The position numbers and the translations under genes were made by a program. Below, piece by piece: positions 3,241 to 17,141 of a stretch of DNA of 64,000 nucleotides (positions within the stretch are counted from its first letter, which is position 1; each line of letters starts with the position of its first letter). This stretch comes from Thermodesulfobacteriota bacterium (GTDB lineage Bacteria > Desulfobacterota_D > UBA1144 > Nemesobacterales > Nemesobacteraceae): NCBI GenBank assembly GCA_965207685.1, contig OZ242294.1:1027896-1091895 (forward strand), given 5' to 3'. The notes under the pieces are model-generated. The model worked only from the letters and a program-made list of their open reading frames with translations. It was not told where the DNA came from and did no database searches.

Positions 3241-4641
3241 ATGAATTCCAGAATAAAGACCCTGATTCTGCACACGCTCGTTTTACTCTTTGTGTTTCTG
3301 CCGGCGGCATCTTCTCACGCTGAAGTAAACCAGAAAAAGATACTCTCCTTTATTTCGAAAAATACCTCGTCGCGAAAGAAAATCGGAATCATGGTACGCT
3401 CCGCCGATACCGGCAAGACGGTTTTCCGCTACAACAGCAAAGAGAAATTCATTCCCGCCTCCAATAACAAAATACTTTCCTCCATAGCGGCGCTTTCCCT
3501 GCTCGGAAAGGATTTCCGGTTCAAAACGGAGTTCTACCTAGGCGGAGGAATACACTCGGGAGTCGGCCACGGCGGTCTTTACGTAAAAGGGTTCGGAGAC
3601 CCCACTATAGACATCGAGAAGCTAAGGGAGATTGCAGGGAAGATTAAAGCCCTAGGGATAACCGGAATCGAGGGCGGGATTCACCTAGACGGTTCGTATT
3701 TTGACGACGTCCTTTACGGAGAAGGCTGGGATCCCGAGTGGCGCGGCAAAAGCTTCTGCCCTCCCGTAACGGCGATTTCGTTCAATTACAACTCGGCCAA
3801 GATAAGAATTTCCGCATCCAGAGTACAGGGAGTCCCCGCAACGGTGAAAACAGAACCCGCCGAGTTTCCCTTCCCGATCAAAAACAGGGTTTCCACCAGG
3901 CTGAAAAGATCGGGGGTGAGAGCACAGTACAACGAACGGAACGAGCTCAGACTCTCCGGACACGTTTCCTCCCGCAAAAAAGCAGAAACCCTGGAACTTT
4001 CGGTGCCAGACCCGTTTTTTTACTTCGGGGCAACGCTCAAGAAAGTTCTTGAGCGGGAAGGAATCGAGGTAAGCGGACCCATAGAGCGCAGGAGAGTGCC
4101 TCGGTGGACCGGCAAAATATTCACCCATTACTCAGAACCTCTGGGGACCATTATCCATGAGTACAACAAAGAAAGCGTCAATATAATCGGAGAAAGCATA
4201 GTCAAGGTGATCGGGGCCAAATATCTCAATACCCAGGGATCATGGAAATCCGGCACATACGTAATTGAAAATCATCTGAGGAGAATTGGTCTTAATGGAA
4301 ACTTCTCCGTCGCCGACGGTTCCGGTCTTTCAAGGCTAAACAAGGTATCCCCCGAGGACATAACCGAAGCACTCCACATAGCCTACGAAGATCCGGACAT
4401 TTCCGAGGAGTTTGTTGCGTCCCTTCCGATCGCCGGAGTTGACGGAACCCTCAAGAAAAGATTTCGTAACCTCAAGGGCAAAGTCTATGCGAAAACCGGA
4501 TATCTTGAAGGAGCCAGATCCCTATCCGGCTACGCGTTCGCAAAAAACGGGCGGGTTTATGTTTTTTCCATCATATCAAACGGCATGGGAACAAGGGTGA
4601 AGAAACTTCAGAACCTGCTTCTTCGGGAGCTTGTCTACTGA
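3241..4641 (+). CDS. dacB: D-alanyl-D-alanine carboxypeptidase/endopeptidase (PBP4-like, peptidase S13)
   Basis: The ORF track starts at 3145 inside polA. The likely start is the ATG at 3241, giving MNSRIKTLILHTLVLLFVFLPAASSHA, a signal peptide. SxxK-like ASNNK, SGLSRLN and KTGYLEG motifs are typical of the PBP4/DacB family. Confidence 0.75.
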   Translation: MNSRIKTLILHTLVLLFVFLPAASSHAEVNQKKILSFISKNTSSRKKIGIMVRSADTGKTVFRYNSKEKFIPASNNKILSSIAALSLLGKDFRFKTEFYLGGGIHSGVGHGGLYVKGFGDPTIDIEKLREIAGKIKALGITGIEGGIHLDGSYFDDVLYGEGWDPEWRGKSFCPPVTAISFNYNSAKIRISASRVQGVPATVKTEPAEFPFPIKNRVSTRLKRSGVRAQYNERNELRLSGHVSSRKKAETLELSVPDPFFYFGATLKKVLEREGIEVSGPIERRRVPRWTGKIFTHYSEPLGTIIHEYNKESVNIIGESIVKVIGAKYLNTQGSWKSGTYVIENHLRRIGLNGNFSVADGSGLSRLNKVSPEDITEALHIAYEDPDISEEFVASLPIAGVDGTLKKRFRNLKGKVYAKTGYLEGARSLSGYAFAKNGRVYVFSIISNGMGTRVKKLQNLLLRELVY

Positions 4642-5453
4642 TTTATTGCGTGGAAGCTGTCGGCCAATCTCGCGAATTCCTCGACCGAGAGGGATTCCGC
4701 CCTTCTTCGCTGATCGATACTCGAGTCTGAAAGTGCCCGTTCAACGGTCCCCCTCTCAAAGAAGTTGCTGAGCGAATTCCTTATAGTCTTTCTCCGCGAT
4801 GAAAACGCATGCCTGGTAACGGTCCTGAAGGTCTTCTCGCTCGATACAGAAAACACGGGTTCCTTAAGCGGGTCGAGCACCACCGCCGCCGAGTCCACCT
4901 CGGGAACCGGATAGAACGCGCGCCGGGAAACCTTGAAGGCAAGCTCTACGCTGAAACAGCTCTGGAGAAGTACCGAGAGGGAGCCGTAGCTCTTCCGCCC
5001 CTTTGCAGAGGATATCCTCTGTGCCACTTCCTTTTGCAGCATCACTACTATCCTCGAGAAAAGTTCCCTTTCATCGAGAAGCTTAAGCAGAATCTGGGTG
5101 GATATGTTATAGGGAAGATTGGATACTAGCTTCGTTTTTTTCCCGTCGGAAAAGCGGCTGAAATCGACTTTAAGAACATCTTCGTAAACAAATTCGACAT
5201 TTGCAGACTCCCCGAATTTCTCGTCGAGAAAGGTTCTCAGTCTCTTATCTTTCTCAATTGCCGTGACTCTGCCGGCACCGTGTGCGAGATGCTCCGTGAG
5301 GCTGCCCTTGCCGGGCCCGACTTCAATCACATGATCTTCTTTTTGGAGCTTTGCGGTAGCGCAGATCTTACGGAGTATGTTGGGGTCGTTCAGAAAATGC
5401 TGTCCGAGCCTTTTAGTCTGATGAAATGCCTCTTCCTGTTTTCTTCCAAGCAA
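4635..5453 (-). CDS. rsmA: 16S rRNA (adenine1518/1519-N6)-dimethyltransferase
   Basis: KRLGQHFLNDPNILRKI...VIEVGPGKGSLTEHL... is the KsgA/RsmA signature with a SAM-binding GxGxG. Its 3' end is convergent with and overlaps the PBP4 gene. Confidence 0.9.
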   Translation of the reverse strand: MLGRKQEEAFHQTKRLGQHFLNDPNILRKICATAKLQKEDHVIEVGPGKGSLTEHLAHGAGRVTAIEKDKRLRTFLDEKFGESANVEFVYEDVLKVDFSRFSDGKKTKLVSNLPYNISTQILLKLLDERELFSRIVVMLQKEVAQRISSAKGRKSYGSLSVLLQSCFSVELAFKVSRRAFYPVPEVDSAAVVLDPLKEPVFSVSSEKTFRTVTRHAFSSRRKTIRNSLSNFFERGTVERALSDSSIDQRRRAESLSVEEFARLADSFHAINQ

Positions 5454-5488
5454 GAATATATCCTATGCTGTAGAAAAAACTTCTCGGG

Positions 5489-7465
5489 TTAAGAATCTAA
5501 TTCTGGTTCATCTATTGCTTCTAACAACCTGCTAATACGACCTTTCTCTTTAGATTTTTCGATATAGTTTTGGTAACTGATCTCCGCATCGTTGATTAGC
5601 TGCTGATAGGTAATCACACGGATATTTTTAGCTTCAAGCGTCTTTTCGGATTCTTCTTTACCTTTTTCACTATCCCAATCTTTCAATTTAGTTCCCACCA
5701 AGCAAATAGTTTCAATGGGACCATCTTCCCCCGCATCTTCAGCCTGTTTTTTAAGGGCTCTTCTGTACTTGTCTACTTGTCCGAGCAAAGAACTTGTCTC
5801 TGTTGATACACGAGCCCTTTTGAGCTCAATAATAATATGCTTTCCAGAGGACTTCTTGTATCGAATATCAATTCGACCCTTCTTTTCTTCTTCTTTTGCC
5901 TCTTCAGATATCTTATCAAAGGCAATTCTTACGTTTTCTTCCATGCTTGGAGTTTCTGTTGCCCTATCCCACGAAGGATCAAGTAACCATAGATGTGAAT
6001 AAATGTGTTTTTGGATAACTTTCTCTAAAGCATTTTTATCAGTATGTTCCTTGAGTTTACGGATAACATCCAATCTGCCCTTAGTAATTTCATAGTACCA
6101 AGATGCTTCAATGTCATCTAGTTCCGAAAACAACTGTACCGCAATCTCAAGGTTCTCAATATCAAGTTGATCCAATTGATTAAGTTTTTCTTTATGATGA
6201 AGATGTTCAAAAGCTAGAATACCATGCTTTAGAAGCGTCCTTCTGTGCTGCCCATCTGTTGCAATAGCATTGATCCTGCCGAACAACTTTCTTGCGGCAC
6301 TGCGTGCGTCACTTTTTAATCCTTGCAACCATTCATTAATTGCAGGAATCTCCTTTGCCTTTTCCTCACCTTCCTCTTCTTTATAACGAGCACGGTCTAC
6401 TCTTAAAAATTTCAATTCTTCTTTTACAAACTCTGATAAGCTAGAAAATCTTTCTTCATTTCGTATAAAATCCTGTCTGCTAGAAGTTGCTATATCTTCT
6501 CTTTCCGTTAAATCCAAAAAGTCCGCTTCTAGTTCACCTATCAAATATTTGGTATGCAAACCACCTTCCCTAAAGGTATCAAGAATGTTTTCCAAAGCGA
6601 CTTTACCTCGTGTCAGAACAGCCAGTTTGTTAAGATTGTCATCTCCATCTTGCAGGGACCCGGATTCCGTGACAAGACCTATCCATCCTTTTATATCATA
6701 ACCCTGCTCACTATTTATAATGCTTTTACGCTCTTTTATCCGTTCATCAGGAAGATGCTTAAAATGCGTCTTCTCGTAATCGCCATAAACTAATGCATAC
6801 TCAAGTTTATGGAAATAGTCTCTGTCACCAATGGTTACCTGCCTACCTCCTATAAATACGTTGAAATTGTCTGATAATATGCTGAAACGTCGGGAAATTC
6901 GTTTTCGCAAGTTATCATCAATTGACGATTGAATCCGTTTTTTTAGTTGTGATAAAACAATAATTGTCCCCGTTTCCGTTGATATCTCGTATTCAGAAGG
7001 AATATCAGATATGGGTTTCGGATAATGACGGTTGCCCTTTGTTATATCATTGCGAATATCTTCAACAACAAGTTCTAGACCTAAAGTTTGATCATCTTTT
7101 TTTGTGTAGATTTGGACATTGTCAGCAATAGAGAAGACAGACAGTTTGCCTATACCTTTTCTCCCCATAACCCTGCGACGTTTTTTGGGGGTAAGGTCAT
7201 CCTGCATATCTTTTCTGCGTTTATAGCCAACCGTCAGGAACTTTTTTCTTAGGTCCTGTTTGTTCATCCCGCAACCGTCATCCCTGACACTGATTATTTT
7301 CTCATCTTCTATCAAGGTAATATCAAGATACACTTCTCCCGCATCGGCATCCCAAGCATTGGCGATTAGTTCCGATAAAACGGCGGGAACGTTGCTGTAC
7401 AAGTTGAGCCCCAAATGCTCTAACGCATTTAAATCAATCTTCAGTTCATAATCTGGCATCAACAC
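5489..7465 (-). CDS. GHKL-superfamily (Bergerat-fold, MORC/Hsp90-like) ATPase fused to a C-terminal PD-(D/E)xK-like nuclease domain
   Basis: N-box LSELIANAWDA, G1 box VRDDGCGM, G2 box GRKGIGKLSVFS. C-terminus WLLDPSWDR...GRIDIRYKKSSGKHIIIELKRAR...QVDKYRR carries a D-(x)n-ExK restriction-endonuclease-like motif. The start overlaps the stop of the upstream C5-methyltransferase by 20 nt. The gene is AT-rich. Confidence 0.6.
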   Translation of the reverse strand: MLMPDYELKIDLNALEHLGLNLYSNVPAVLSELIANAWDADAGEVYLDITLIEDEKIISVRDDGCGMNKQDLRKKFLTVGYKRRKDMQDDLTPKKRRRVMGRKGIGKLSVFSIADNVQIYTKKDDQTLGLELVVEDIRNDITKGNRHYPKPISDIPSEYEISTETGTIIVLSQLKKRIQSSIDDNLRKRISRRFSILSDNFNVFIGGRQVTIGDRDYFHKLEYALVYGDYEKTHFKHLPDERIKERKSIINSEQGYDIKGWIGLVTESGSLQDGDDNLNKLAVLTRGKVALENILDTFREGGLHTKYLIGELEADFLDLTEREDIATSSRQDFIRNEERFSSLSEFVKEELKFLRVDRARYKEEEGEEKAKEIPAINEWLQGLKSDARSAARKLFGRINAIATDGQHRRTLLKHGILAFEHLHHKEKLNQLDQLDIENLEIAVQLFSELDDIEASWYYEITKGRLDVIRKLKEHTDKNALEKVIQKHIYSHLWLLDPSWDRATETPSMEENVRIAFDKISEEAKEEEKKGRIDIRYKKSSGKHIIIELKRARVSTETSSLLGQVDKYRRALKKQAEDAGEDGPIETICLVGTKLKDWDSEKGKEESEKTLEAKNIRVITYQQLINDAEISYQNYIEKSKEKGRISRLLEAIDEPELDS

Positions 7466-8603
7466 TCTCCAGATGATTTATTATGGAACTACCGATAGCG
7501 GTGGCTAAAAGGGGTGGTACAGCATTACCTATGTGCTTTCCGATAACAGAAAATGTGGGTTTTTCGCCGAGAGGACAAAACTTATAGTCTTCTGGAAAAG
7601 TTTGTAGTATTGCCCCTTCTCTGAGACTCAAAGCACGGTCTTGCTCAGGATGACCAAAACGCCCTGTCCCATAACCATGGAACTGAGTAGTAAGTGTCGG
7701 CGCAGGTTTATCCCAATTCATTCGCCCATAGACATTGTGGTAGGTTCCGCCACTACTTTTCCTGTAACAGGCAGGAAGCAACTCTCTTGGCCAATCTCTC
7801 CAGCTTCCTCCTGGTACCGAAGCTTGGATTCTTCTAAAATTGATAGGAGATAAAGACCTGCAGACATGCATTGGGTCTGTTGAGCTTGCTTCCCCATGGG
7901 CTAGATTTTCCAAGTGCCCGATAGCTCTTCTCACTGTAATGGGATCTTCAACCCTTTTTCCGGGTAGACAGATGTCTTCTAACAAAGAAGCAAGCAAGAC
8001 CAAACGACGTCGACTTTGGGGCACGCCGAAGTGTGCACATGGAATGATTCCATCAGCAATCTGGTAACCGTGCCTTCGCAGGGTACTTTTGAATTTACGA
8101 TAAACTTCCTTGCTCTTGAGTGCCGGTACATTTTCCATGGAAACAACTTCGGGCATTCCCTCGGTTACTAATCTCAAAAATTCATTAATTAGGTTCCATC
8201 GGAAATCCTCATTGTTCTTTCTATGTTTACTCGTGTGTGTAGAAAAGGGTTGACAAGGTGCACACCCAACCAGAATTCTATATTTTGCACCGTCAAAACA
8301 AGAGGAAATATCTGTGTAACTAACGTTCCTGATATCCGAATGAATAAACTCTGCCTGACAATTTTCCTCATAGGCATAGCGACAGGTTGCGTCAATGTCC
8401 AATCCTGCTACCACAGTGATTCCAGACTTCTGCAGTCCGTAGGACAACCCACCTATGCTGCAGAACACATCAAATGCCTTAGCAGAGACTGTAGACATCA
8501 TAGCTGGGGGATTGTTAATAACTGACTGACTCAAGGCTATGTCCTCTCTATTACAATAATAAGCATTGCAGAGCTTAGTAGCAATTTCCGCTTTATGCTT
8601 CAA
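7446..8603 (-). CDS. DNA (cytosine-5)-methyltransferase
   Basis: Motif I FCSIGGLSYGL, motif IV GCAPCQPFS (PCQ catalytic Cys), motif VI ENVPAL, motif VIII QSRRRLVLL, motifs IX/X LSLREGAILQTFP...IGNAVPP. Confidence 0.9.
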   Translation of the reverse strand: MKHKAEIATKLCNAYYCNREDIALSQSVINNPPAMMSTVSAKAFDVFCSIGGLSYGLQKSGITVVAGLDIDATCRYAYEENCQAEFIHSDIRNVSYTDISSCFDGAKYRILVGCAPCQPFSTHTSKHRKNNEDFRWNLINEFLRLVTEGMPEVVSMENVPALKSKEVYRKFKSTLRRHGYQIADGIIPCAHFGVPQSRRRLVLLASLLEDICLPGKRVEDPITVRRAIGHLENLAHGEASSTDPMHVCRSLSPINFRRIQASVPGGSWRDWPRELLPACYRKSSGGTYHNVYGRMNWDKPAPTLTTQFHGYGTGRFGHPEQDRALSLREGAILQTFPEDYKFCPLGEKPTFSVIGKHIGNAVPPLLATAIGSSIINHLESVDARL

Positions 8604-8615
8604 CGCAGTACAGTT

Positions 8616-9863
8616 TCAGGAATGATTACCGCCGAGCCTCTGACGCTCCTTGACCAACTCAACAAAGTCCTTGACGTTCATCAACCATTTCTGTTGTGCA
8701 GGACTATAGGAACTGAATATTACACTTGGCACAACAAGCTGTAGCCTCTCTGCCTGCATTTCGTCAGTCTGTCCCTCCGAAATTCCCGGTTGCAGCGTGA
8801 GTAGGTGCTTCTCCTCAATCTTGTTTGCCTCGGTAAGTACCTGCCGCCAACGGTCCTTGCAACTAGTCTTTACACCTAGCATTGTCAAGAGACCTGTATC
8901 AAAGTCAGGATCATGATACTGCTTTTCTCCAAGAAAGAGAAAATCGGGACCTCTACGCTTCTCAGTAGTAGCCTCGCGCGTGTATAAAACACCCTGTGCT
9001 TTCAGTATTGCCTCAACATGATGCCCAAAAGCCCATCCGGCTCGTGACTTTCGGCGATTCTGGATACTCAGTGAGAAACGCAGGAAGTCATCTACATCGG
9101 GAATGTCTACAAAGTTTTTTCTAATCTGATCGGCGATTATATAGCGTTCCAAGTGCCTAAACAATACTTCCTCGTGATCCATCCAAGTCGCCAGCGTCTC
9201 ATCGGGTGCTCCAACCGGATCAGCATCAGCAAGTGTGTCACGGGCAAAACCAGAGAATTCCGCAGTTCCCGGAAATCCATCTCCATATCTGGCAATTAGT
9301 TCTTCCAATGCATCGGACGGCTGTGGTGCCTCCAATTCAATGCCAAAACCATCAAGAATTGCCCTAGCACTATAACCCAGATGAATGCCTTCATCGGTCC
9401 CAAGAATTTTTGCTTCAACCCTCCGCCCCATTAGATCAAGTCCGAAGAGCCAAAGTAGCTGACGGGCAATTGTTGTATTCGCAGGACAAAGTATTACATG
9501 CAGGCTTTGTTCCCTAGTCTTCGCAATAACGAGAAGATCGCCCGCCTTCGCTCTGTGGACAATTGCTTCGGATTCAGCACTATAGTAAAGATGATATTCT
9601 GCCGAACGGGCAGGGTTGTTCCTTCGAACATCACTCCAAGTGCAAAAGGAATTTGAGACTGCTGGTTCCTCGTCTTCCTCATCATCTAGCCAGTGAAAAG
9701 TGGAAGAAAATCTGATTTTCTCGGCCGATTTTCCGAGGAACTTGCGAAAGCTGCTGACCCCTTGGAATTCATGTTGGTTCGAACGCAGCTTGTTGACTTC
9801 TACTTCGGTAAGGTATTTCGCCCCCACACCCTCGAAAAAATCAGAAAGAATGCCAAATTTCAC
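8616..9863 (-). CDS. EcoRII-family (Type IIE) restriction endonuclease. The catalytic C-domain is conserved and the N-terminal domain is divergent.
   Basis: The C-terminal half aligns closely with the EcoRII catalytic domain as I recall it: SIQNRRKSRAG, GPDFLFL, LGVKTSCKDRWRQVLTEANKIEEKHLLTLQPG, LQLVVPS. The N-terminal 170 aa shows no obvious resemblance to the EcoRII B3-like effector domain. A 4-nt ATGA overlap with vsr. Confidence 0.75.
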   Translation of the reverse strand: MKFGILSDFFEGVGAKYLTEVEVNKLRSNQHEFQGVSSFRKFLGKSAEKIRFSSTFHWLDDEEDEEPAVSNSFCTWSDVRRNNPARSAEYHLYYSAESEAIVHRAKAGDLLVIAKTREQSLHVILCPANTTIARQLLWLFGLDLMGRRVEAKILGTDEGIHLGYSARAILDGFGIELEAPQPSDALEELIARYGDGFPGTAEFSGFARDTLADADPVGAPDETLATWMDHEEVLFRHLERYIIADQIRKNFVDIPDVDDFLRFSLSIQNRRKSRAGWAFGHHVEAILKAQGVLYTREATTEKRRGPDFLFLGEKQYHDPDFDTGLLTMLGVKTSCKDRWRQVLTEANKIEEKHLLTLQPGISEGQTDEMQAERLQLVVPSVIFSSYSPAQQKWLMNVKDFVELVKERQRLGGNHS

Positions 9864-10321
9864 GGGCTTCTCTCTCCTATGATCTGATCTTCAGGATCAT
9901 TGCCCACTATCCAAGTGCTAATGCGATCCATAAGAGTTTCAAAGTCAAGGCGTTTTTTGCCCTTAAGTGCACACTCCCATACTATAAGATATCTCCAGCC
10001 GTTTTCTAAAACAGAAGTCCGAACTTCTGCATCGCGCTGGCGGTTTCGATCAATCTTGGTTTGCCAAAATTCCGATCGTGTTGAGGGCATTCTAAAAAGA
10101 TGGCAGTCATGTCCGTGCCAAAAACAACCATGCACAAAAATCGCAGCACGGTAGCGTGACAAGGCTAGATCAGGTTTCCCACAGATTCTAGTAGAATGAA
10201 GCCTGTAGCGAAAACCGCGCGCATGCAAAGCCTTCCGGATCACCATTTCTGGCTTGGTATTTTTTCCTCTGACGCTGGACATTATCCGGCTGCGCGTTAA
10301 CGCATCCACTGTGTCAGCCAT
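9860..10321 (-). CDS. vsr: Very-short-patch-repair endonuclease
   Basis: 153 aa. SRIMSSVRGKNTKPE...RGFRYRLH...PDLALSRYRAAIFVHGCFWHGHDC...W.KI.RN..RD is the full Vsr signature. The start overlaps the stop of the upstream C5-methyltransferase by 1 nt. Confidence 0.9.
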   Translation of the reverse strand: MADTVDALTRSRIMSSVRGKNTKPEMVIRKALHARGFRYRLHSTRICGKPDLALSRYRAAIFVHGCFWHGHDCHLFRMPSTRSEFWQTKIDRNRQRDAEVRTSVLENGWRYLIVWECALKGKKRLDFETLMDRISTWIVGNDPEDQIIGERSP

Positions 10322-11424
10322 CAGGTCGCCACAACTTCCTCAGAAGCATAGTTCAAAGCTTTTTCACTGTTCAACAGATATGGAACCATGTAACGGGCTA
10401 TACATTCCACAACGGGTACGGCAACCGCGTTTCCAAACTGTCTGTATGCTTGGTTGTCACTGACCGGAATCAGAAAATCCGATTGGCCCGGTCCGTCGAA
10501 ACCCATGAGGCGCGAACATTCTCTAGGTGTCAACCTTCGCGGGTTGCCTTGCTTGCGCCTTACAAGAATCTCCGAACCATCCTTGTAGTAGCGTGCGGAA
10601 AGAGTACGAGCTACATCCTCAGATCCTACAAGCCCAAAGCCAAATCCGTTTCCACGTCTGCGATGTTTCATTGCATAATCCTGAAGGTATCGCCACAATC
10701 TATCAGATAGAGTGTACTTGCTGTTCACGCGGCCTTCGTAGTCGGTATAGTGCTTGTCCTTCCCTTCGGTTCCATCTTCAGGGTGAAGAACTGTCCCCAG
10801 TCGTGGCCCCTTAAGGGGATCAGGAATGTAAACATCTTCAAGGGAAAAATCCGTCCGCTCACGAAAACCTACAATGAAAATGCGTTCGCGGTGTTGAGGA
10901 ACAAATCCTTTGGCATCAATCACCCGACAGCTTATATGATAGCCCAAGTCATCCACAAGAGTTTTGCGAATAATCCGAAAAGTATTTCCCTTATTGTGAT
11001 TGACAAGGTTTTTTACATTTTCAAGCAAAAATGCCTTTGGCCTGTGATGTTCAATGATCCGTGCCAAATCAAAGAACAGAGTGCCTTGGGTTTCGCAACG
11101 AAATCCGTGTGCATGTCCAAGGGCATTTTTCTTGCTTACTCCTGCAATCGAGAAAGGCTGGCAGGGGAAACCCGCCAGAAGAAGATCATGCTTCGGGATA
11201 TCAGTGACATCCACATACCTGATGTCACCTGCCATAATATGATCCTCACAGTCACGGTAATTGGCCAGATAGGTTTGCTGGGCATATTTATCCCATTCGC
11301 ATGTAAAGGCACAATACCCTCCTAAGCTATCAAAACCCTGACGCAATCCCCCGATCCCCGCAAAAAGATCAATGAAGCGGAAAGAATTTGTTGTATAAAG
11401 AGAATTTCCCTTGTTCCCCTTCAT
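10321..11424 (-). CDS. DNA (cytosine-5)-methyltransferase (dcm-like partner of vsr)
   Basis: Motif [11 protein letters not shown], motif [10 protein letters not shown], motif VI ENVKNL, motif [14 protein letters not shown], motif [15 protein letters not shown], motif [14 protein letters not shown]. Translationally coupled to vsr, as in the canonical dcm-vsr arrangement. Confidence 0.9.
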
Positions 11425-11794
11425 GCGCTGCCCTAGTAAGGTTTTCTAAGTATCGTTATTGCTGACTTGTGCGGTTTGGAATTTCCTTCCCCCGTTCCAA
11501 AAGAACCTGTTCCGAATAACCAAGCAAGTCGGACAGTTGCGACAATGCTATGACAACAAGACAGCATAGCACTGAAAACTCGGGTTGCCTGTTCATATCA
11601 GAAAATGTTTCTGTATAGCACAGAACTAACGCTAATATTATGGCGTACCAGCCATGGATTGCAAGGTGATACTGGCCATTAGGATAATTAGTCTTAAGAT
11701 TCTCCTACCAAGTCAGTTAAGCCAATAGAAAAGACCTTTCCTTGGAAAGTTTTCGTCGTGCAAATCGGGGGTTTCAAACATAGGGGTCAATCTA

Positions 11795-12520
11795 TTATCG
11801 CCGGATGTATTTTCTGATTTCTCCCATTGACAAGCAGACATCTTTTCGTCTGTGTACCATGCGGTGGCAGTTCGCGCATAGGACGACAAGATCAGTTGCA
11901 GGATTTGTTTTTCTCTTACCAGCGTTGTTTGCCAATGGCAGAACGTGATGAACTTCAATGAAGCCCTTACCTATCTCTCCATAGCACTCTTCAAAGTTAA
12001 AACCACAGGCCATGCAGTCGTAACCGTGTATGTCCAGCGCATTTTTTCTAAGCGCAGAATTGCGTTCGCGCCCGACTGAGATGTAGACTCGCTCACCGCC
12101 TTCCGTTCTCACATTCTGTGAAGCAGCATGAGTGGGTTCAGGCATGTTGTTTAGCAGGTCAAGCACAAATATTTCCAACTCTTCGTCAGAACAATCCCCC
12201 CATTCCTCGACTACGTCCTTGAATCTATTGCTCAGAGAGCGCTGCCGACCGTCTCTGTCTTTCCATCCAATACGGCCATTAGGGAACAAGGGATCGAAGG
12301 TGTCACGAGTATTCTTCATGCTGTTACGGAACTGCGAAGGTGTGCGACCATCACCTAAGGCATCGTAGAAAACGTCATACGCCGCATTCCAAGTTGTGGC
12401 ACGTAGTGCGACTGGTGGTCCGGCTGGCCCGTTGGACCTATGCTCTCCGCATCGGGCCAAATAGTAACTCGCAGTTATCATCTCCAATGACCGCTCGACG
12501 GGATTCGACGATTTTTTCAT
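11795..12520 (-). CDS. HNH-family endonuclease with an uncharacterised N-terminal domain (candidate restriction enzyme)
   Basis: The C-terminal beta-beta-alpha-Me zinc-finger nuclease motif is CMACGFNFE...EVHHVLPLANNAGKRKTNPATDLVVLCANCHRMVH. The roughly 150-aa N-terminal region has no recognisable motifs. It lies 370 nt upstream of the dcm-like methyltransferase on the same strand. Confidence 0.65.
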   Translation of the reverse strand: MKKSSNPVERSLEMITASYYLARCGEHRSNGPAGPPVALRATTWNAAYDVFYDALGDGRTPSQFRNSMKNTRDTFDPLFPNGRIGWKDRDGRQRSLSNRFKDVVEEWGDCSDEELEIFVLDLLNNMPEPTHAASQNVRTEGGERVYISVGRERNSALRKNALDIHGYDCMACGFNFEECYGEIGKGFIEVHHVLPLANNAGKRKTNPATDLVVLCANCHRMVHRRKDVCLSMGEIRKYIRR

Positions 12521-12674
12521 AGTAATCCTATATCATAGATTTTACACAGCATCAAAGGATGGTGTACAAGGGGAAAGAAACGAGGGATGAAAAAACCGTA
12601 TGAATAAAAACAGGCGCTTATACTATATAACCGCAGCCAGTTGCACCATTAGCGAAGCAATGGATTTTCAACCC

Positions 12675-12687
12675 TTTTGCAACCACA
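12675..12687. repeat. Copy A of a 13-bp direct repeat TTTTGCAACCACA (16/18 over the extended match) that brackets the GHKL four-gene module
   Basis: It lies in the intergenic region between the last module gene (stop 12707) and the HNH gene (start 12520). Confidence 0.5.
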
Positions 12688-12706
12688 ATAATATCCCAAA
12701 ATAAAA

Positions 12707-13462
12707 CTAGGCTGTTTTCAGTCTGTCCACAGCTTGACCTGCACATTCTTGAACAAACGCATCGGCTTCTGACTCGCTCAGTGCTTCAAAGACGATTCCA
12801 CCGCCTTGACGGTTGAGTACTTTCATGAACTCGCGAAAGTTCTGTTCGGCATCGGTAATCCATTCCCGTGTATCCATTGCCCGCAGAACAGCACCTGCGA
12901 TGTTTCTGCGGCTGCTCATCCAAATTCGCTCGACAAAGTTACTTCTGATGTCAGCGGTTTTCAGGATAAGCTCTAAAGCCTTATCTGTATTGTCTGGCAT
13001 GCAGGTTCGTGCAATGTGATAGTTCCACCATAGTCGCGACAGTGCATGGTCGTCACGAATGATTGTTTGAGTGGGCGCAAAGAAATGCCTTTCTATGGCG
13101 GAAACAAGATCCTCACCTTCTTTTCCTGTAAGCCAGCGTATTTTACTGTATTCAAATGCTTCCAGATGAGAAAGACGGACCCAGATACGCTCTTCATTCG
13201 CCAGTGATGGTGTCAGATTTTCCAGTGCCTTGCCGACAATTCTTGAATTTGCAAGATCAATCTCGATAATTCTGCGTTGCCGTGTCGTATGAAGCGTAGC
13301 AAGGAGATTCCCGTCGAAGTTGACTTTCGCAGAGATATCCCATGACGCTAGAGAAGCATATTCCTCAAAACCATTACCGGTATACCGCTCAATATTTTTT
13401 TGGATAGAGTTTTTAAGTTCGGACAACGCACTGTCTGAGAGATATTTAAGAGGTTCATTCAT
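12707..13462 (-). CDS. Hypothetical protein (last gene of the GHKL-ATPase module)
   Basis: A 251-aa ORF with coding-like composition. Its start overlaps the stop of the upstream ORF (ATGA, 13459-13462). I recognise no motifs. Confidence 0.45.
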   Translation of the reverse strand: MNEPLKYLSDSALSELKNSIQKNIERYTGNGFEEYASLASWDISAKVNFDGNLLATLHTTRQRRIIEIDLANSRIVGKALENLTPSLANEERIWVRLSHLEAFEYSKIRWLTGKEGEDLVSAIERHFFAPTQTIIRDDHALSRLWWNYHIARTCMPDNTDKALELILKTADIRSNFVERIWMSSRRNIAGAVLRAMDTREWITDAEQNFREFMKVLNRQGGGIVFEALSESEADAFVQECAGQAVDRLKTA

Positions 13463-14292
13463 CCGATGGACTCCTTTATGACTTTTATAGTTGCCCCTAG
13501 CGGTTCTCTTAGGAGTTTCTGTGCAACCTCAAGAGGCGATAAAGTATCATCTGACGGATCGATGCCCATATCGTCACATTTCGCCCCGAAAACTCTGTAC
13601 CAGCGTTTTCCCTGCAAGCTCTTGTCTATCTGAAGTCTTGAGACAATGTCCATGACGGCTGGCATGTAGACAGTGTTAAGAAGAATTGTGCGTCCCTCAA
13701 GGATGTTTCGCATGTTGGCGATGGACTTATAGGTTTCCGGTTCTGCCAGAATTGTAATCTTGTCCCCGTCAGGATCAACATTGATCATTCCCGGGTTAAT
13801 ATCTTCCCTCTGAGCCAAGTCGAATATAGTTTCAAATGGTTTGAATTTCTGCTGATCAATCGAAAATCGGAATTCCGGCCCCATAGCTATAACTGAACCT
13901 TTCGTTATGACGATGTCTTTGCCGAATTCATTGTCAATTAGAGGGCTTGAATAATTTCCGACATCTTCAAGAGTCCATATGACGGGACGCAGAGAAACCG
14001 CTCCATAAAGTCGACTTAATTCAAAAAATTTTTCCGATTCTCCGAGTGAAGCAGGCTGAAGGTAATTGAAGTATGTGCGTCTGCATATAGCAAAATATCC
14101 CGCGGAAGCCTTCTGATTTTCGATAAGAACTCTCAATTCATCACAGTTAATGGAGAAGTTTGAAACGATTTTCAACTGGTCCTCGTCAGTAACCTGATGA
14201 GAGAAAGACGCAGAAAACTCGCCAGTCGTATAATCGGAGGAAAATTCACTTAGAACAGGGTGCGGATAACGCATTCTCTCATTCAGCTTCAT
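13459..14292 (-). CDS. Hypothetical protein (third gene of the GHKL-ATPase module)
   Basis: A 277-aa ORF whose start overlaps the GHKL gene stop (ATGA, 14289-14292). I recognise no motifs. Confidence 0.45.
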   Translation of the reverse strand: MKLNERMRYPHPVLSEFSSDYTTGEFSASFSHQVTDEDQLKIVSNFSINCDELRVLIENQKASAGYFAICRRTYFNYLQPASLGESEKFFELSRLYGAVSLRPVIWTLEDVGNYSSPLIDNEFGKDIVITKGSVIAMGPEFRFSIDQQKFKPFETIFDLAQREDINPGMINVDPDGDKITILAEPETYKSIANMRNILEGRTILLNTVYMPAVMDIVSRLQIDKSLQGKRWYRVFGAKCDDMGIDPSDDTLSPLEVAQKLLREPLGATIKVIKESIG

Positions 14293-16184
14293 GCTGCTTC
14301 TCCTGTTTGCTGTTCTTCCTCAACACGGGAAGCTAAGATCTCTACGGGGCCAGTATAAGGGGCATCAAAGACCACATCAATGCTGGTACGCCGACCCGCT
14401 GTACAGGCTACTACAACAGCATTATTCTTGATTCGGCCTTCTGATGTGCTTACCGGGTTCAAACGTTCAGAAGCTGTCAAGCCGGTTGCATCAGCATAGA
14501 GCACAATATCTGCAGAGACGGGTGAAGTGAATTTGATCTGCTTTTTACTTGGGTTCGACCTGTCCGGTATCAGGACGCGTTCTGATATCAGTTTAACCGG
14601 TTTCATGATCTTCTTTGGACGCGGTGTTGGTTCGGGGTCCGGCGGTGGTGGGTCTGGATCCGGAGAGGGTTCGGGACCGGGTTCGGGACCAGGGTCGGGG
14701 CCGAGGGTCGGTGGCTGGGATCTCACAGGCTTGACGGGCGTGAGCTTTTTTGATTGGGGATTTGTTTCCATCCCAGCATCATCTTCGATTCTTTCTTCAT
14801 CCGAGGCAAAAAATTCATTCAGTTCATCAAGTTCCAGCGTATTCGATGGCTGTGACATGGCCAACTCTCGAATTCTGCCGCGTATTCTTTTTGCAAGTTT
14901 TTCAAAAACTTTCTGCCCTCTGGCTCTGAGTTCAGGGTCGGTTATCTGCTCTGCAGACAGACTGTCATGGCGGGGGTTTTCAAGTCGTTTGAACCACTCA
15001 CCTTCGTTTTTACCGGCAGGCTCTATAATTACAGCGAAATTGCGGTGGAGAGGGAAGCGTTTGAAGGGTTCATCAAAATAGGAAAGATTGTCGGTGATAT
15101 ACATGCCGTTACGAATGATGCCTATTGTATATCCAAGGCCGTCACGCATCAGCATGTGCATGCGAACCGTTCCCAAGCCTTCAATCTCAAGAAAGCTTTT
15201 CGTGGCGTTCTGTTTGTCAATCAGGCAGGCGTGGAGGATTTTCGCTGCGTTGAACGCAACACGTTCATTAAGCTCATCCACAGCCTTGTTGACCTTGCTG
15301 TCGTTGAAAAGTTCCTGAAGTGTTCCGCGATTAATTTTGATCAACCCGTTACCAATTTCAAATTCCATTTCTCGGCGCTCTATGGCACAGAAAAAATTCA
15401 TCAGGATTGCGGCCGCCATTTCGTAGCGCCAGTCCGTCCGGTTATTACGCATACAAATACAGAAAATTGAGGTTCCCTGTTTATCACGCAGAAGCCATTC
15501 CGGAATTTCACGGGGACTGTCTAACGGCATATACCCTTTCGGTTTGCCCCAGTATCCCTTCCGTCTTTTTTTCTTTCCGTCTTTTCCCGTATGAGAAATA
15601 AATTGTGTTTTTCCCATGCAGAGAACCTGTCTGTCTCCGCTCTCATCTGTGTAGAGAGTTGAAATGAAGACAGTATGGATATCTGAAAGGGCAAAAGTCG
15701 CATTCTTACCTATGCCGAAAGAACCACCAGAGTCTACGTCATCCTTTACGCTGATGCCGTCAGTTTTAGCAAGCGTATGGAAGGGCGTGCCCTCTTCACA
15801 TGGTCCACGAACGCCTTTCGTATTGAAATCTGAGATTCTGAGAACCTTGATTTTTTCTGCATTAAGGGTTTTCAAAGCGTTTTTGAAGAAGCCTTTTCCC
15901 TTCTCATTATTTGCTGCAACCGATTTATTCAAGCAGAGTTTTGCGGCTTCTCTATACTGCTTGATAGACGGAAATTTCTCTGACTCTACCCTCATAACAT
16001 CGAAAGTAACTTTTACGGGTTTATTAGCATCGTCGCAGGCGTCGCGGCTGTTCTGGCCTGTCTCACGAGCAGCTGTGGCGAATGGATTCTCCTGAAAAGT
16101 TGATATACCTCCTTCATTGAGGCCTTCAGCTTCTCCCCCTACATTGGGTAAAAATTCAAGTCGTATTTCACTCATCAATTGCAC
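14289..16184 (-). CDS. GHKL-superfamily ATPase (Hsp90/MutL/MORC-like Bergerat fold) with a Pro/Glu/Asp-rich linker and a small C-terminal domain
   Basis: N-box AARETGQNSRDA (E-x3-N-x2-D-A), G1-like LRISDFNTKGV, G2 box DSGGSFGIGKNATFA. This is followed by about 300 aa of unknown fold, then the linker GPDPGPEPGPEPSPDPDPPPPDPEPTPRP, then a roughly 100-aa beta-rich tail. It is not a paralog of the 5489-7465 GHKL protein. Confidence 0.6.
   Translation of the reverse strand: MQLMSEIRLEFLPNVGGEAEGLNEGGISTFQENPFATAARETGQNSRDACDDANKPVKVTFDVMRVESEKFPSIKQYREAAKLCLNKSVAANNEKGKGFFKNALKTLNAEKIKVLRISDFNTKGVRGPCEEGTPFHTLAKTDGISVKDDVDSGGSFGIGKNATFALSDIHTVFISTLYTDESGDRQVLCMGKTQFISHTGKDGKKKRRKGYWGKPKGYMPLDSPREIPEWLLRDKQGTSIFCICMRNNRTDWRYEMAAAILMNFFCAIERREMEFEIGNGLIKINRGTLQELFNDSKVNKAVDELNERVAFNAAKILHACLIDKQNATKSFLEIEGLGTVRMHMLMRDGLGYTIGIIRNGMYITDNLSYFDEPFKRFPLHRNFAVIIEPAGKNEGEWFKRLENPRHDSLSAEQITDPELRARGQKVFEKLAKRIRGRIRELAMSQPSNTLELDELNEFFASDEERIEDDAGMETNPQSKKLTPVKPVRSQPPTLGPDPGPEPGPEPSPDPDPPPPDPEPTPRPKKIMKPVKLISERVLIPDRSNPSKKQIKFTSPVSADIVLYADATGLTASERLNPVSTSEGRIKNNAVVVACTAGRRTSIDVVFDAPYTGPVEILASRVEEEQQTGEAA
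14628..14713 (-). repeat. Imperfect 12-nt tandem repeat inside the GHKL gene, encoding a Pro-Glu/Asp-Gly linker
   Basis: GGGTTCGGGACC occurs twice exactly, with degenerate copies on both sides. On the minus strand this translates to GPDPGPEPGPEPSPDPDPPPPDPEPTP. Confidence 0.7.
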
Positions 16185-16225
16185 CTCACATAAACTAATG
16201 TTCTTTGTTGTCTGCGTTTCAAATA

Positions 16226-16456
16226 TCAGCGACTGCTCAGCCGAAATGAATCGACTCCACCTTCACCATTTTCAGAGAACCTGCTTTTTGCAGCATCAAG
16301 TTCCTTTTGGAGCGCCTTGAAAATTTCACGCGCATCTTTCTCCGAATATTCATAAGAACCTCGGTTGGAGAGATTGCCAATAAGTCGGATATCTTTAACT
16401 GCACGGTTCACTCTGGCTTCCGCCAGCTCAACAAATTTTTTACGTTTATCACGCAT
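16226..16456 (-). CDS. Small hypothetical protein (76 aa), first gene of the GHKL-ATPase module
   Basis: The ATG at 16454-16456 (minus strand) is preceded by AGGAG with 8-nt spacing. The product is MRDKRKKFVELAEARVNRAVKDIRLIGNLSNR..., helical and charged. It ends 40 nt upstream of the GHKL gene. The longer ORF-track start at 16507 lacks an RBS. Confidence 0.4.
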   Translation of the reverse strand: MRDKRKKFVELAEARVNRAVKDIRLIGNLSNRGSYEYSEKDAREIFKALQKELDAAKSRFSENGEGGVDSFRLSSR

Positions 16457-16952
16457 CGTAAATCTCCTGTTTGAATGTAAGGTTACACTAAAATAGAATA
16501 TTGTCAATATATTTCACATATAAATACTAAATATATTGTTTAATTAAGCACTATATATGCCGAAAAACGGGGAATATATAAAGGCGAATTGCTAAGATAT
16601 GCGATTAGAAGGCGTTTAAATTTCAGATTTTTTCAGAGAGATGTTCAATAATGGAGCAGATATTCTTGTTTTTTCAATCCTCCGTTCCACCCCCTTATAC
16701 CCTTCTTGTTACAGGGTATAAGCAAAAAAACTTTAGGAAAAAAGAATAAAAATGCTCAGAAAGGAAATTTGAGGTGTCACCTAGTCATTTCTGGAGTATG
16801 CGAGGAGGGCTGCTCCCACCTCCTACGGAATTTTTTGGATCCAAGATTCTCCTCAGATTCTAGCAGATTTTGCCGCATAATTAACAGGAATCAATAGAAA
16901 TTATGCTAGCTCCTGTTTGCCGCTCTTAGTATAAAAAAAGTGATCAAACCAT

Positions 16953-16965
16953 TTTTGCAACCACA
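16953..16965. repeat. Copy B of the 13-bp direct repeat TTTTGCAACCACA
   Basis: It lies in the 635-bp AT-rich intergenic region between the small first gene of the module (start 16456) and ftsB (17142). Confidence 0.5.
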
Positions 16966-17141
16966 GCAATCTTCGGTTGCATCATTGGGCAACCATAATT
17001 GACCAGCAGCTTGGTCAGTGAAAAGTGAATAGGTTCGCACTCAGTGACGGTGACGAAACAAATTCCAATGAAATTCTAATCAGGGCTCCCATTTGCGATA
17101 TATTGTAAAAACCCACTACCCAACTACCAAGAACTGCAAGG

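Follow-up and report, generated by a model that had tools for sequence, protein, structure and literature searches.

A 64,000-nucleotide stretch of contig OZ242294.1 from a Thermodesulfobacteriota bacterium (the window) carries on its minus strand a genuine four-gene operon, S-A-B-C, centred on a MORC/MutL-like ATPase. Its first gene, S (16226..16456), encodes a 76-aa helical protein and is followed by A (14289..16175), encoding a 628-aa MORC/SMCHD1/MutL-like ATPase of the GHKL+S5 type, B (13459..14292), encoding an apparently non-enzymatic subunit of 277 aa, and C (12707..13462), encoding a 251-aa DUF6339 protein. An earlier note on this DNA had recognised all four open reading frames and had described an operon of uncharacterised function, built around a GHKL ATPase and set in a restriction-modification (RM) island; each of these points is borne out here. 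The ATGA overlaps that it reported at A/B and B/C are present, but the gap between S and A measures 50 nt rather than 40, because A begins at ATG 16175, 9 nt downstream of a GAGG, as does the database protein P0001 (628 aa), and not at GTG 16184, which would give 631 aa. Residues of A are numbered according to P0001; numbers in the 631-aa reading frame are higher by 3. The search for recurring cassettes that the note had advised was productive: A, B, and C are contiguous, with overlapping genes, in 61 loci ranging from Alphaproteobacteria to plasmids of Bacillota.

The operon is part of a composite RM/defence island of 11.7 kb (5432..17135) between rsmA and divIC/ftsB. This island, whose G+C content is low throughout, is missing from the sister Ca. 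Dadabacteria genomes L094 and L095, in which rsmA and divIC are ~75-82 bp apart and with which homology ends at window position 5431 and restarts at 17136. No tRNA or Rfam family marking the island was found. Beyond C lie, also on the minus strand, an HNH endonuclease of 241 aa (11795..12520; Pfam HNH, E 2.8e-6) and an adjoining RM module of Dcm (10321-11424), Vsr (9860-10321), and an EcoRII-type endonuclease with an EcoRII-C match (8616-9863), a trio that also flanks S-A-B-C in L001, L090, L099, and ~15 further loci and that probably sets this genome's methylation mark. They are followed by a second Dcm, a C5-methyltransferase (7446-8603; DNA_methylase), and a GHKL+PD-(D/E)xK restriction enzyme of the BbrUII/HgiDII family (5489-7465; NCBIfam restrict_BbrUII, E 5e-220; Pfam HATPase_c_3 and PDDEXK_4), which together form a second, independent RM module (5489..8603). 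All of these neighbours except the second Dcm had been named in the earlier note. The HNH gene is 76% identical to the gene at the same position in L086 and is missing in L090, L099, L097, and L098; it is a candidate nuclease partner, an optional fifth gene in this clade. Upstream of S, positions 16623..16666 of the minus strand contain a vsr remnant (3' end of the gene), identified by colinearity with L086: window 16666-11740 aligns with L086 3261-8250 (87% identity), a segment whose first part, 3261-3304, is where the Vsr gene of L086 ends. Terminator and promoter scans stayed at chance level, and the spacers after C fold no better than shuffled sequence.

The window contains exactly two copies of the 13-bp repeat TTTTGCAACCACA, one at 12675 and the other at 16953. 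Across the region, the number of exact 13-mer repeats is about that expected by chance (3 observed versus 2.4 expected); the placement of this repeat in both spacers has a P of ~0.005. The upstream copy is the first 13 nt of a 26-bp boundary element, E, on the minus strand (16940..16965; TGTGGTTGCAAAAATGGTTTGATCAC in cassette orientation), and the downstream copy, also on the minus strand (12675..12687), repeats the 5' half of E in direct orientation 20 nt past the stop codon of C and occurs in L086 as well. Homology with L090 and L099 starts exactly at E, despite a different chromosomal site, and homology with L090 stops 2 nt short of the downstream repeat, at whose position the 3' half of E is found inverted in L090 and L099. 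The 13-bp repeats are parts of a 26-bp element located at homology breaks between related loci. The proposal of the earlier note that they bracket a mobile unit agrees with L090, where homology begins and ends at the repeats, but not with L086, where the homologous block crosses the downstream repeat into the HNH gene, nor with the annotated ORFs of the island, among which there is no recombinase gene. The repeats were rejected as limits of the island, since homology with L094 and L095 breaks elsewhere. An 18-mer of E gave 3 exact matches in viral contigs, about the chance expectation and none with the cassette; E was rejected as a dispersed genomic repeat.

In A, the two motifs singled out by the earlier note, ETGQNSRDA and SGGSFGIGKNATF, lie in columns that are invariant across 13 homologs. 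Invariant among these diverse homologs, down to 41% identity, are E38, N42, D45, D116, N118, G121, and G151-K157, which comprise the three GHKL motifs: motif I (ExxxNxxD) is E38/N42/D45, motif II is D116-F-N-T-K-G121, a variant of DxGxG, and motif III (GxxGxG) is G151-S-F-G-I-G-K157. In the predicted structure, a Bergerat fold leads into an S5/transducer domain, after which come a helical region, a disordered proline-rich linker (aa 442-520), and an Ig-like beta-sandwich (aa 523-619), and the top structural matches are MORC3 and SMCHD1, which score above MutL. This fold was recognised by structure prediction only, after sequence methods had missed it: Pfam HATPase_c and HATPase_c_3 did not match the family (13 members) even at E ≤ 10, hhalign against two HATPase_c_3 proteins was insignificant, and NCBIfam and PDB profile searches did not detect it. 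A is a highly divergent member of the GHKL superfamily. Neither a C-terminal dimerisation domain nor an endonuclease domain like that of MutL was found in A, and A and B gave no sign of a nuclease fold, a methyl-reading domain, or a toxin-like effector domain. A further motif of A, L398-E399-N400-P401-x-H403-D404 (the ENPxHD loop), is invariant and is modelled at low confidence (pLDDT < 50).

B is predicted to have a beta-sandwich in its N-terminal part (aa ~26-183) and a helical bundle in its C-terminal part (aa 185-276). C belongs to Pfam DUF6339 (E 3.3e-42), a family of 1,211 representative clusters at 50% identity whose members are nearly all stand-alone proteins of ~250 aa; longer ones (~350 aa) have C-terminal extensions without a Pfam domain. 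Residues of C conserved across loci include Y27, W94, H99, R109, W110, W145, W146, and N217, the conserved positions being chiefly Trp, Tyr, and Leu. PDB profile searches with the sequences of B and C returned no match, no nuclease match was found for C in Pfam or, by sequence, in the PDB, and none of the four proteins of the operon matched PHROGs. In at least one homolog, P0478, B and C are fused.

S is conserved across phyla and present in 48 loci, in all of which it is the first gene of the operon; a homolog on a Priestia megaterium plasmid was recovered with an HMM E value of 1.3e-29. Its invariant residues are F8, L11, R15, L25, N28, L29, N31, Y35, and F60, and by sequence it matched nothing in Pfam, PADLOC, PHROGs, or the PDB, the HTH_XRE signature of Pfam and the PDB included. 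Upstream of S, on the minus strand, a putative promoter/operator region that is conserved in the close clade can be read (16480..16527), with a -35 element TTGACA (16507-16502), a putative -10 element TAACCT (16485-16480), the palindrome ATATTGACAATAT of the ACATTT/AAATGT motif family (16510-16498), and a variant half-site pair, GTATTT...GAAATAT (16527-16509); the consensus form of the candidate operator is ACATTTCnGAAATGT. Such ACATTT-N-AAATGT palindromes lie upstream of S in 26 of 44 loci, versus 5.2 ± 2.1 in shuffles, with 51 half-sites versus 7.9 ± 2.8, and they are nearly absent from loci lacking S (2 weak cases among 26). S has a palindromic candidate operator upstream of its own gene, as RM controllers do. 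Because S and the palindromes co-occur, and it is from this co-occurrence alone that we infer binding, S is probably the autoregulatory, controller-like DNA-binding protein of the operon.

Searches against PADLOC-DB v2.0.0 matched A to PDC-M33A (E 1.1e-93, aa 7-473 on profile positions 3-441 of 627) and, over their full lengths, B to PDC-M33B (E 3.5e-43) and C to PDC-M33C (E 1.2e-30). The C-terminal third of A, with its linker and Ig-like domain, falls outside the alignment, and S is matched by no PADLOC model. The three matched genes are adjacent, co-directional, and in the order of the PDC-M33 definition, and judged by these profiles the locus is a member of this catalogued candidate defence family. 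The earlier note had proposed a new defence system matching no named one; it is not new, as A, B, and C are already catalogued, but this tells only weakly against the proposal, PDC-M33 being a catalogued candidate only, and a defence role is plausible. A literature search found no paper naming PDC-M33 or DUF6339 and no published experiment or mechanism for PDC-M33, a family that is itself a prediction; on GHKL or MORC proteins in anti-phage defence it returned only the unrelated VcSduA Shedu, SLFN-pAgo, and CapK.

New here is that the family almost always resides beside a DNA methyltransferase and with its own small regulator gene. Over 57 non-redundant loci, C5-methyltransferases number ~0.40 per kb up to 1 kb from the cassette and ~0.01 per kb beyond 3 kb, an enrichment of Dcm of ~35-fold; Dcm is found within 3 kb in 50 of the 61 loci and in 29 of the 33 that have at least 3 kb of flank on each side. 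It may be upstream and co-directional, divergent, convergent, or intra-operon (S-Dcm-A-B-C, Dcm-A-B-C), with a methyltransferase inside the operon in at least 6 loci. The linked C5-methyltransferases are often accompanied by Vsr, which ~1/4 of Dcm-linked loci lack; they belong to at least 4 families, with partner swapping and weak co-evolution (Mantel r 0.19, p 0.002). A divergent, Dcm-less clade has an N6-MTase directly upstream, or a Type I RM system, and no Vsr. About 40% of Dcm-linked loci (21 loci, families 2 and 3) have no restriction enzyme, L098 consisting only of Dcm-Vsr-S-A-B-C flanked by housekeeping genes, and ~40% have a complete classical RM system of the EcoRII or MvaI/BcnI type. 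In four loci (L092, L069, L007, and L034), the 6-10 kb around S-A-B-C contain no methyltransferase. Among the genes found nearby are integrases, relaxases, toxin-antitoxin genes, AbiJ, and GmrSD, and no other defence family recurs beside the cassette. The remark of the earlier note that defence genes cluster in islands understates this context, which is a specific, recurrent adjacency to a DNA methyltransferase and as such points to a functional dependence on methylation.

The reading that we favour, at a probability of roughly 0.45, is that S-A-B-C is a defence module akin to RM systems, with a MORC-like clamp as its motor and methylation as its reference. The neighbouring methyltransferase, here the Dcm at 10321-11424, would provide the 'self' mark; it is usually a C5-methyltransferase, and its companion Vsr or T:G glycosylase would repair deamination damage. 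S would autoregulate the operon via ACATTT-N-AAATGT-type operators, as RM controller proteins do. B and C would be non-enzymatic partners, probably binding each other and A, and A-B-C would load as an ATP-dependent dimeric clamp onto DNA without the methylation of the partner enzyme. Clamped DNA could then be blocked in replication or expression without cutting, in a BREX-like manner, or be passed to a separately encoded nuclease, which in this clade would be the product of the HNH gene or the co-resident EcoRII-type enzyme. This reading draws on the PDC-M33 matches, the conserved A-B-C core, the methyltransferase linkage and the loci free of restriction enzymes, as well as on the fusion P0478, S with its operator, the mobile and defence context, and precedent among RM systems (PMC2292703). 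Against it weighs that A and B contain no recognisable nuclease or methyl-reading domain. Loci without a methyltransferase fit poorly with an obligate restriction-like module, unless the enzyme is encoded elsewhere in the genome, and the partner methyltransferases differ in family and probably in specificity, so that recognition of all their marks by a single conserved A-B-C complex is hard to explain. Where a complete classical RM system is already present, the cassette could equally be an accessory.

We consider it unlikely that A-B-C is a nuclease-free silencing or exclusion machine, in which a MORC/SMCHD1-like clamp compacts or blocks DNA according to its cytosine-methylation state. The view of the earlier note, that S-A-B-C senses and stops infection by itself and that the RM genes are mere co-travellers in the island, is in keeping with the PADLOC definition, which comprises A, B, and C only, with a promoter and regulator of the cassette's own, with the four loci that have no adjoining methyltransferase, and with the swapping of methyltransferase partners among close relatives. 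Generic co-location in islands, however, predicts varied neighbours and not a single enzyme class, whereas Dcm is concentrated ~35-fold around the cassette, methyltransferases enter the operon itself, and no other defence family recurs there; this view, too, has a low probability. The complete RM neighbours are of unrelated types (EcoRII, MvaI/BcnI, Sau3AI, AlwI, and Type I), as would be expected if a MORC-like complex watched over the adjacent RM system or methyltransferase, or its DNA breaks, and, once a phage had inhibited restriction, answered with a second line of defence, for instance abortive infection, in the way that PrrC backs up EcoprrI. A core without its own nuclease would suit such a guard, and the variety of methyltransferase and restriction enzyme families suits a generic sensor better than a sequence-specific reader, but the 21 Dcm-linked loci that have a methyltransferase, with or without Vsr, offer no restriction enzyme to guard, and A and B have no toxin-like effector domain that we could find, which leaves this explanation quite unlikely.

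That a cryptic nuclease resides in C or in the ENPxHD loop of A, which would make A-B-C a new type of ATP-dependent restriction enzyme, complete in itself, appears improbable: the loop is invariant, H99, R109, and N217 of C are conserved, and loci with an orphan methyltransferase and A-B-C resemble complete RM units, but searches revealed no fold or motif of a known nuclease, conservation in C falls mostly on Trp, Tyr, and Leu, and the loop is modelled at pLDDT < 50. Finally, E. coli MutL stimulates Vsr, and a MutL-like A might by analogy aid Vsr or T:G glycosylase in repairing 5-methylcytosine deamination, or mend damage from self-restriction. Such a repair role is very improbable given the clade with N6-MTase or Type I systems and the quarter of Dcm-linked loci that have no Vsr, the missing MutL C-terminal domain, the better scores of MORC3 and SMCHD1, and the patchy distribution of the cassette, which is carried by mobile elements and defence islands.

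This is a large family, DUF6339 alone comprising ~1,200 clusters at 50% identity, and it is spread across phyla and plasmids, with a candidate function only. The methylation-referenced reading turns a catalogue entry into a testable model of a MORC-like motor, two non-enzymatic partners, a regulator with a defined operator, and a near-obligate link to a DNA methyltransferase. If the dependence on methylation is true, the cassette would represent a new, compact form of RM-like immunity and a tractable bacterial model for the coupling of MORC/SMCHD1-type ATPases to DNA methylation; if false, it is one more candidate defence cassette alongside RM systems. Were A-B-C a silencing machine, the link of MORC/SMCHD1 ATPases to DNA methylation that operates in eukaryotic epigenetic silencing would have in it a living counterpart among prokaryotes, and possibly its evolutionary source.

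Compared with known systems, the cassette itself is not a classical Type II RM system, as no nuclease fold was recognised in A or B and none was matched for C; the adjoining EcoRII module is a separate, complete one. S resembles the controller (C) proteins of Type II RM systems in being small, first in the operon, and associated with palindromic operators at or before its own promoter, but differs from them in having no HTH_XRE signature or other family match. The histidine kinase and receiver-domain proteins of Detocs are not part of the cassette. BREX is a multi-gene system that combines a methyltransferase with a complex built around an ATPase, with no obvious core nuclease and located on defence islands, and the cassette is similar to BREX/DISARM-type methylation-based, nuclease-poor exclusion systems in its pairing of methyltransferase and ATPase, its nuclease-poor core, and its carriage on islands. 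Unlike that of BREX, its methyltransferase, a Dcm or N6-MTase, is of an ordinary Type II-like kind and exchangeable, and none of the island proteins matched a BREX component in PADLOC or Pfam, be it PglZ, BrxC, BrxL, PglX, or another. The anti-phage system Mza (MzaABCDE), which occurs in cytosine-methylase neighbourhoods, likewise has a MutL-like GHKL ATPase, MzaB. A computational study of 2008 described GHKL+S5 ATPases encoded in RM operons alongside cytosine methylases, Vsr, and HNH, and predicted them to be RM components; among them, paraMORC1 is extended at its C-terminus and found together with HNH (Iyer, Abhiman & Aravind 2008, PMC2292703). Like A, prokaryotic MORC and paraMORC proteins combine GHKL and S5 domains with intact motifs and are found in cytosine methylase/Vsr/HNH neighbourhoods, the likeness of A to MORC and paraMORC1-5 being one of architecture (C-terminal extension) and neighbourhood (HNH, Dcm, Vsr) only (PMC2292703). 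The BbrUII-like gene of the window, for its part, resembles paraMORC3 (PMC2292703). SF-II helicases and RE-fold nucleases, or a nuclease fused to the ATPase, are typical of the prokaryotic MORC/paraMORC systems (PMC2292703), whereas the cassette has no helicase and joins its ATPase to B, a DUF6339 protein, and S.

The four coupled minus-strand ORFs of the earlier note are all present: S (16226–16456, 76 amino acids, with an AGGAG ribosome-binding site), A (14289–16184 as the longest ORF), B (13459–14292, 277 amino acids) and C (12707–13462, 251 amino acids). The database protein for A, P0001, has 628 residues and begins with the ATG at 16175; counted from this likely start, the S–A gap is 50 nt, and the A/B and B/C junctions are each joined by an ATGA overlap. 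The neighbors named there, an HNH gene, a C5-methyltransferase (Dcm), Vsr, an EcoRII-C endonuclease, a second Dcm and a GHKL plus PD-(D/E)xK enzyme, were likewise all found. The operon is not a new system, as had been proposed: A, B and C match the PDC-M33A, B and C models of PADLOC-DB (E values of 1.1e-93, 3.5e-43 and 1.2e-30, respectively), and the locus is a member of this candidate defence family. The Pfam family of C is DUF6339, whose profile matches 1,211 representative clusters, and the many homologs are annotated throughout as hypothetical or DUF6339. Given these matches, and since a literature search for PDC-M33 or DUF6339 returned no paper naming either, the A-B-C family is an already catalogued candidate with no published experiments.

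Sequence methods did not detect a GHKL domain in A. The motifs from which the ATPase had been recognized nevertheless stand, as E38/N42/D45, D116xNxxG121 and G151SFGIGK157 are invariant in homologs down to 41% identity. In the structural model, A is predicted to consist of a GHKL+S5 module followed by helices, a disordered Pro-rich linker (residues 442–520) and an Ig-like beta-sandwich (residues 523–619). A further motif, L-E-N-P-x-H-D (residues 398–404 in P0001 numbering; window 14966–14992), is invariant over the same range of homologs, is placed in a loop of low model confidence, and could be a catalytic or interaction site. B is confidently modeled (pLDDT 89.5) as a beta-sandwich with a helical bundle, for which only generic structural neighbors were found. 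The residues conserved in C and B among the roughly 60 loci compared are mostly hydrophobic. One database protein, P0478, is a B–C fusion (hhalign probability 98.7%) with DUF6339 as its C-terminal half, which argues that B and C act together.

Loci were gathered from 5 genomes, 80 metagenomes, 3 plasmids and 8 pre-annotated contigs, and were scanned with iterated HMMs. Complete A-B-C is found in 61 of them, with a Dcm at most 3 kb away in 50, and in 29 of the 33 loci whose flanks both extend for at least 3 kb. Besides A, B, C, S, Dcm, Vsr and EcoRII, no family recurs in more than 8 loci. The context of the cassette is a link to methyltransferases, more than a shared island. The arrangements include Dcm-Vsr-S-A-B-C, a divergent one with Vsr and Dcm pointing away from S-A-B-C, a convergent one with Dcm facing C, and Dcm within the operon, as S-Dcm-A-B-C or Dcm-A-B-C. 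A divergent clade devoid of Dcm has an N6-methyltransferase and a protein of about 160 residues directly upstream, or the cassette lies inside a Type I restriction-modification (RM) locus. In five loci (L073, L074, L078, L079 and L080) the N6-adenine methyltransferase and this protein, which is unrelated and gave no family match, replace S and Dcm upstream of A. The RM systems adjoining the plasmid loci are of Sau3AI type and AlwI, and in the L. salivarius plasmid L088 (5105–6757) an 80-residue hydrophobic ORF occupies the position of S.

The EcoRII-associated Dcm of the closest relatives (L090, 10680–11948; L099, 9668–10939) carries an N-terminal HTH_3/HTH_31 domain, which suggests a self-regulating methyltransferase; a Pfam scan reported no HTH domain in the Dcm of the window (10321–11424). 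Two other close relatives (L086, 1292–2891; L097, 382–1923) have their upstream Dcm broken into two ORFs, and L086 also has a split S (3504–3735), either because the genes have decayed or because of metagenome assembly errors. C is often followed by a variable fifth gene, namely DUF5677, DUF2971, an unknown 250-residue family or, in the clade of the window, HNH (L005, L006, L009 and L027, 13485–14375; L001, 13705–14661; L020, 13589–14527; L003, 13648–14394; L004, 13435–14232); such genes may serve as interchangeable effectors or be cargo with no relation to the cassette.

S immediately precedes A in 48 loci and is the better conserved of the two; it occurs also on a Priestia megaterium plasmid (E value of 1.3e-29), and it stays first even when a methyltransferase lies within the operon, as in L053, L055 and L075 (S-Dcm-A-B-C). 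Palindromically arranged ACATTT/AAATGT half-sites are strongly over-represented in the 120 nt upstream of S: 44 non-redundant regions hold 51 exact half-sites, versus 7.9 ± 2.8 in shuffles, and 26 of the 44 contain a palindrome, versus 5.2 ± 2.1, with none in 38 control segments from inside A. As the motif was picked after inspecting the sequences, these statistics lend support without amounting to a blind test. AAATGT is also the commonest 6-mer there in an unbiased count, and A-B-C loci that lack S show 4 half-sites in 8.1 kb and 2 weak palindromes among 26 loci. The window has two variant sites, GTATTT...GAAATAT (16527–16509) and ATATTGACAATAT (16510–16498), the latter overlapping the −35 element TTGACA. 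We infer that this operator is bound by S, which would thereby regulate its own operon.

By exact-sequence look-up, the housekeeping proteins of the window fall into clusters named Candidatus Dadabacteria. The whole RM/defence island (5432–17135) spans 11.7 kb and is inserted between rsmA and divIC/ftsB, genes that are about 75–82 bp apart in the sister Ca. Dadabacteria genomes L094 and L095; no integrase, transposase or tRNA marks the site. It is a composite of a BbrUII-like RM module, an EcoRII RM module and a block (16666–11740) that is 87% identical to L086 and holds the 3′ end of vsr, S-A-B-C and HNH. The last 44 nt or so of vsr, at 16623–16666, are homologous to the vsr preceding S in L086, L097 and L098, and on this comparison appear to be a relic of a lost upstream Dcm-Vsr pair. 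Because the block keeps this remnant, Dcm-Vsr probably stood upstream of S in the ancestor of the locus, an order still seen in L086, L097, L098 and L091; the downstream Dcm-Vsr-EcoRII module is retained, likewise in L090 and L099. The module at 5489–8603 comprises a BbrUII/HgiDII-family enzyme (HATPase_c_3 plus PD-(D/E)xK; NCBIfam E value of 5e-220), resembling paraMORC3 (Iyer et al. 2008), and its own C5-methyltransferase, so that two unrelated GHKL-based systems share the island. In L091 (10834–15274), a second Dcm, a 768-residue HATPase_c_3 protein and a Response_reg-like protein directly downstream of Dcm-Vsr-S-A-B-C make up an RM system of the paraMORC/two-component-like kind that PMC8011034 describes.

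The 13-mer thought to bracket the operon occurs only twice in the 64 kb. Exact 13-mer repeats are at chance level across the 13.7-kb region, and placement in both spacers has P ~0.005. Locus comparison identifies the upstream copy as the 5′ half of a 26-nt element E, TGTGGTTGCAAAAATGGTTTGATCAC, which also precedes S in L090 and L099, though at a different chromosomal site. The stretch homologous to these two loci starts precisely at E and stops 2 nt short of the downstream 13-mer; immediately after C they have the 3′ half of E in inverted orientation, where the window and L086 have its 5′ half in direct orientation. Judging by these edges and half-copies, E marks module junctions and probably recombination breakpoints. 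A repeat check rejected E as a dispersed repeat. In L090 (10515–10550) and L099 (9495–9530) the inverted copy is part of a hairpin, TGATCAAAC-N10-GTTTGATCA, in a region whose overall folding is no better than that of shuffled sequence. Movement of the operon as a unit is thus partly supported, but the block common to L086 continues past the downstream copy into HNH, E is missing upstream in loci of the Dcm-Vsr-S type, and no recombinase gene was found among the annotated ORFs of the island.

The best-supported model, with a probability of about 45%, is that the cassette is an RM-like, methylation-referenced defence module. Of its elements, the fold, the methyltransferase linkage, the B–C fusion and the operator are shown, and we infer the rest: the methyltransferase would mark self DNA, S would time expression, and a MORC-like dimer of A would act with B and C on unmarked DNA, blocking it without cleavage or teaming with a separate nuclease (HNH here, or EcoRII). 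That the cassette is instead an independent defence system merely co-traveling with RM genes seems unlikely. In its favor, partners are clearly swapped, the correlation between A and Dcm similarity being weak (Mantel r 0.19, p 0.002), and L092, L069, L007 and L034 have no methyltransferase near the cassette; against it, normalized Dcm density drops from 0.40 per kb within 1 kb to some 0.01 per kb at distances over 3 kb.

A role as guard or backup of RM systems is slightly more doubtful. EcoRII-type nucleases accompany 17 of the complete loci, and the Dcm partners belong to at least four families: family 1 (22 loci including the window) has an identified EcoRII-type or MvaI/BcnI-type enzyme in at least 19, families 2 and 3 (21 loci) are without a restriction enzyme, and family 4 (3 loci) has an unknown 520-residue protein in each. 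L098 consists only of Dcm-Vsr-S-A-B-C flanked by housekeeping genes. That C or the ENPxHD loop of A is a cryptic nuclease, a reading which would overlap with the methylation-referenced model, is improbable; a nuclease fold was sought in A and B and not found. We give the lowest probability to a MutL-like repair accessory for Vsr, which is present in 39 loci; in L071, L076 and L077 (e.g., L077 3335–3976) the gene beside Dcm is instead an HhH-GPD glycosylase, which may be an alternative T:G mismatch repair partner.

BREX, Mza, Detocs and a classical Type II enzyme were each rejected for the locus because their defining components were tested for and are absent. Features that appear to be undescribed in the searchable material are the methyltransferase linkage with its figures, the role of S as a conserved regulator and its defined operator, the resemblance of the model of A to MORC3/SMCHD1, the fusion of B with C, and the boundary element E. 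The locus also belongs to a wider class predicted in 2008 (PMC2292703), that of GHKL+S5 ATPases in RM operons, and the widespread PDC-M33-type family may be a bacterial parallel to MORC silencing coupled to methylation.
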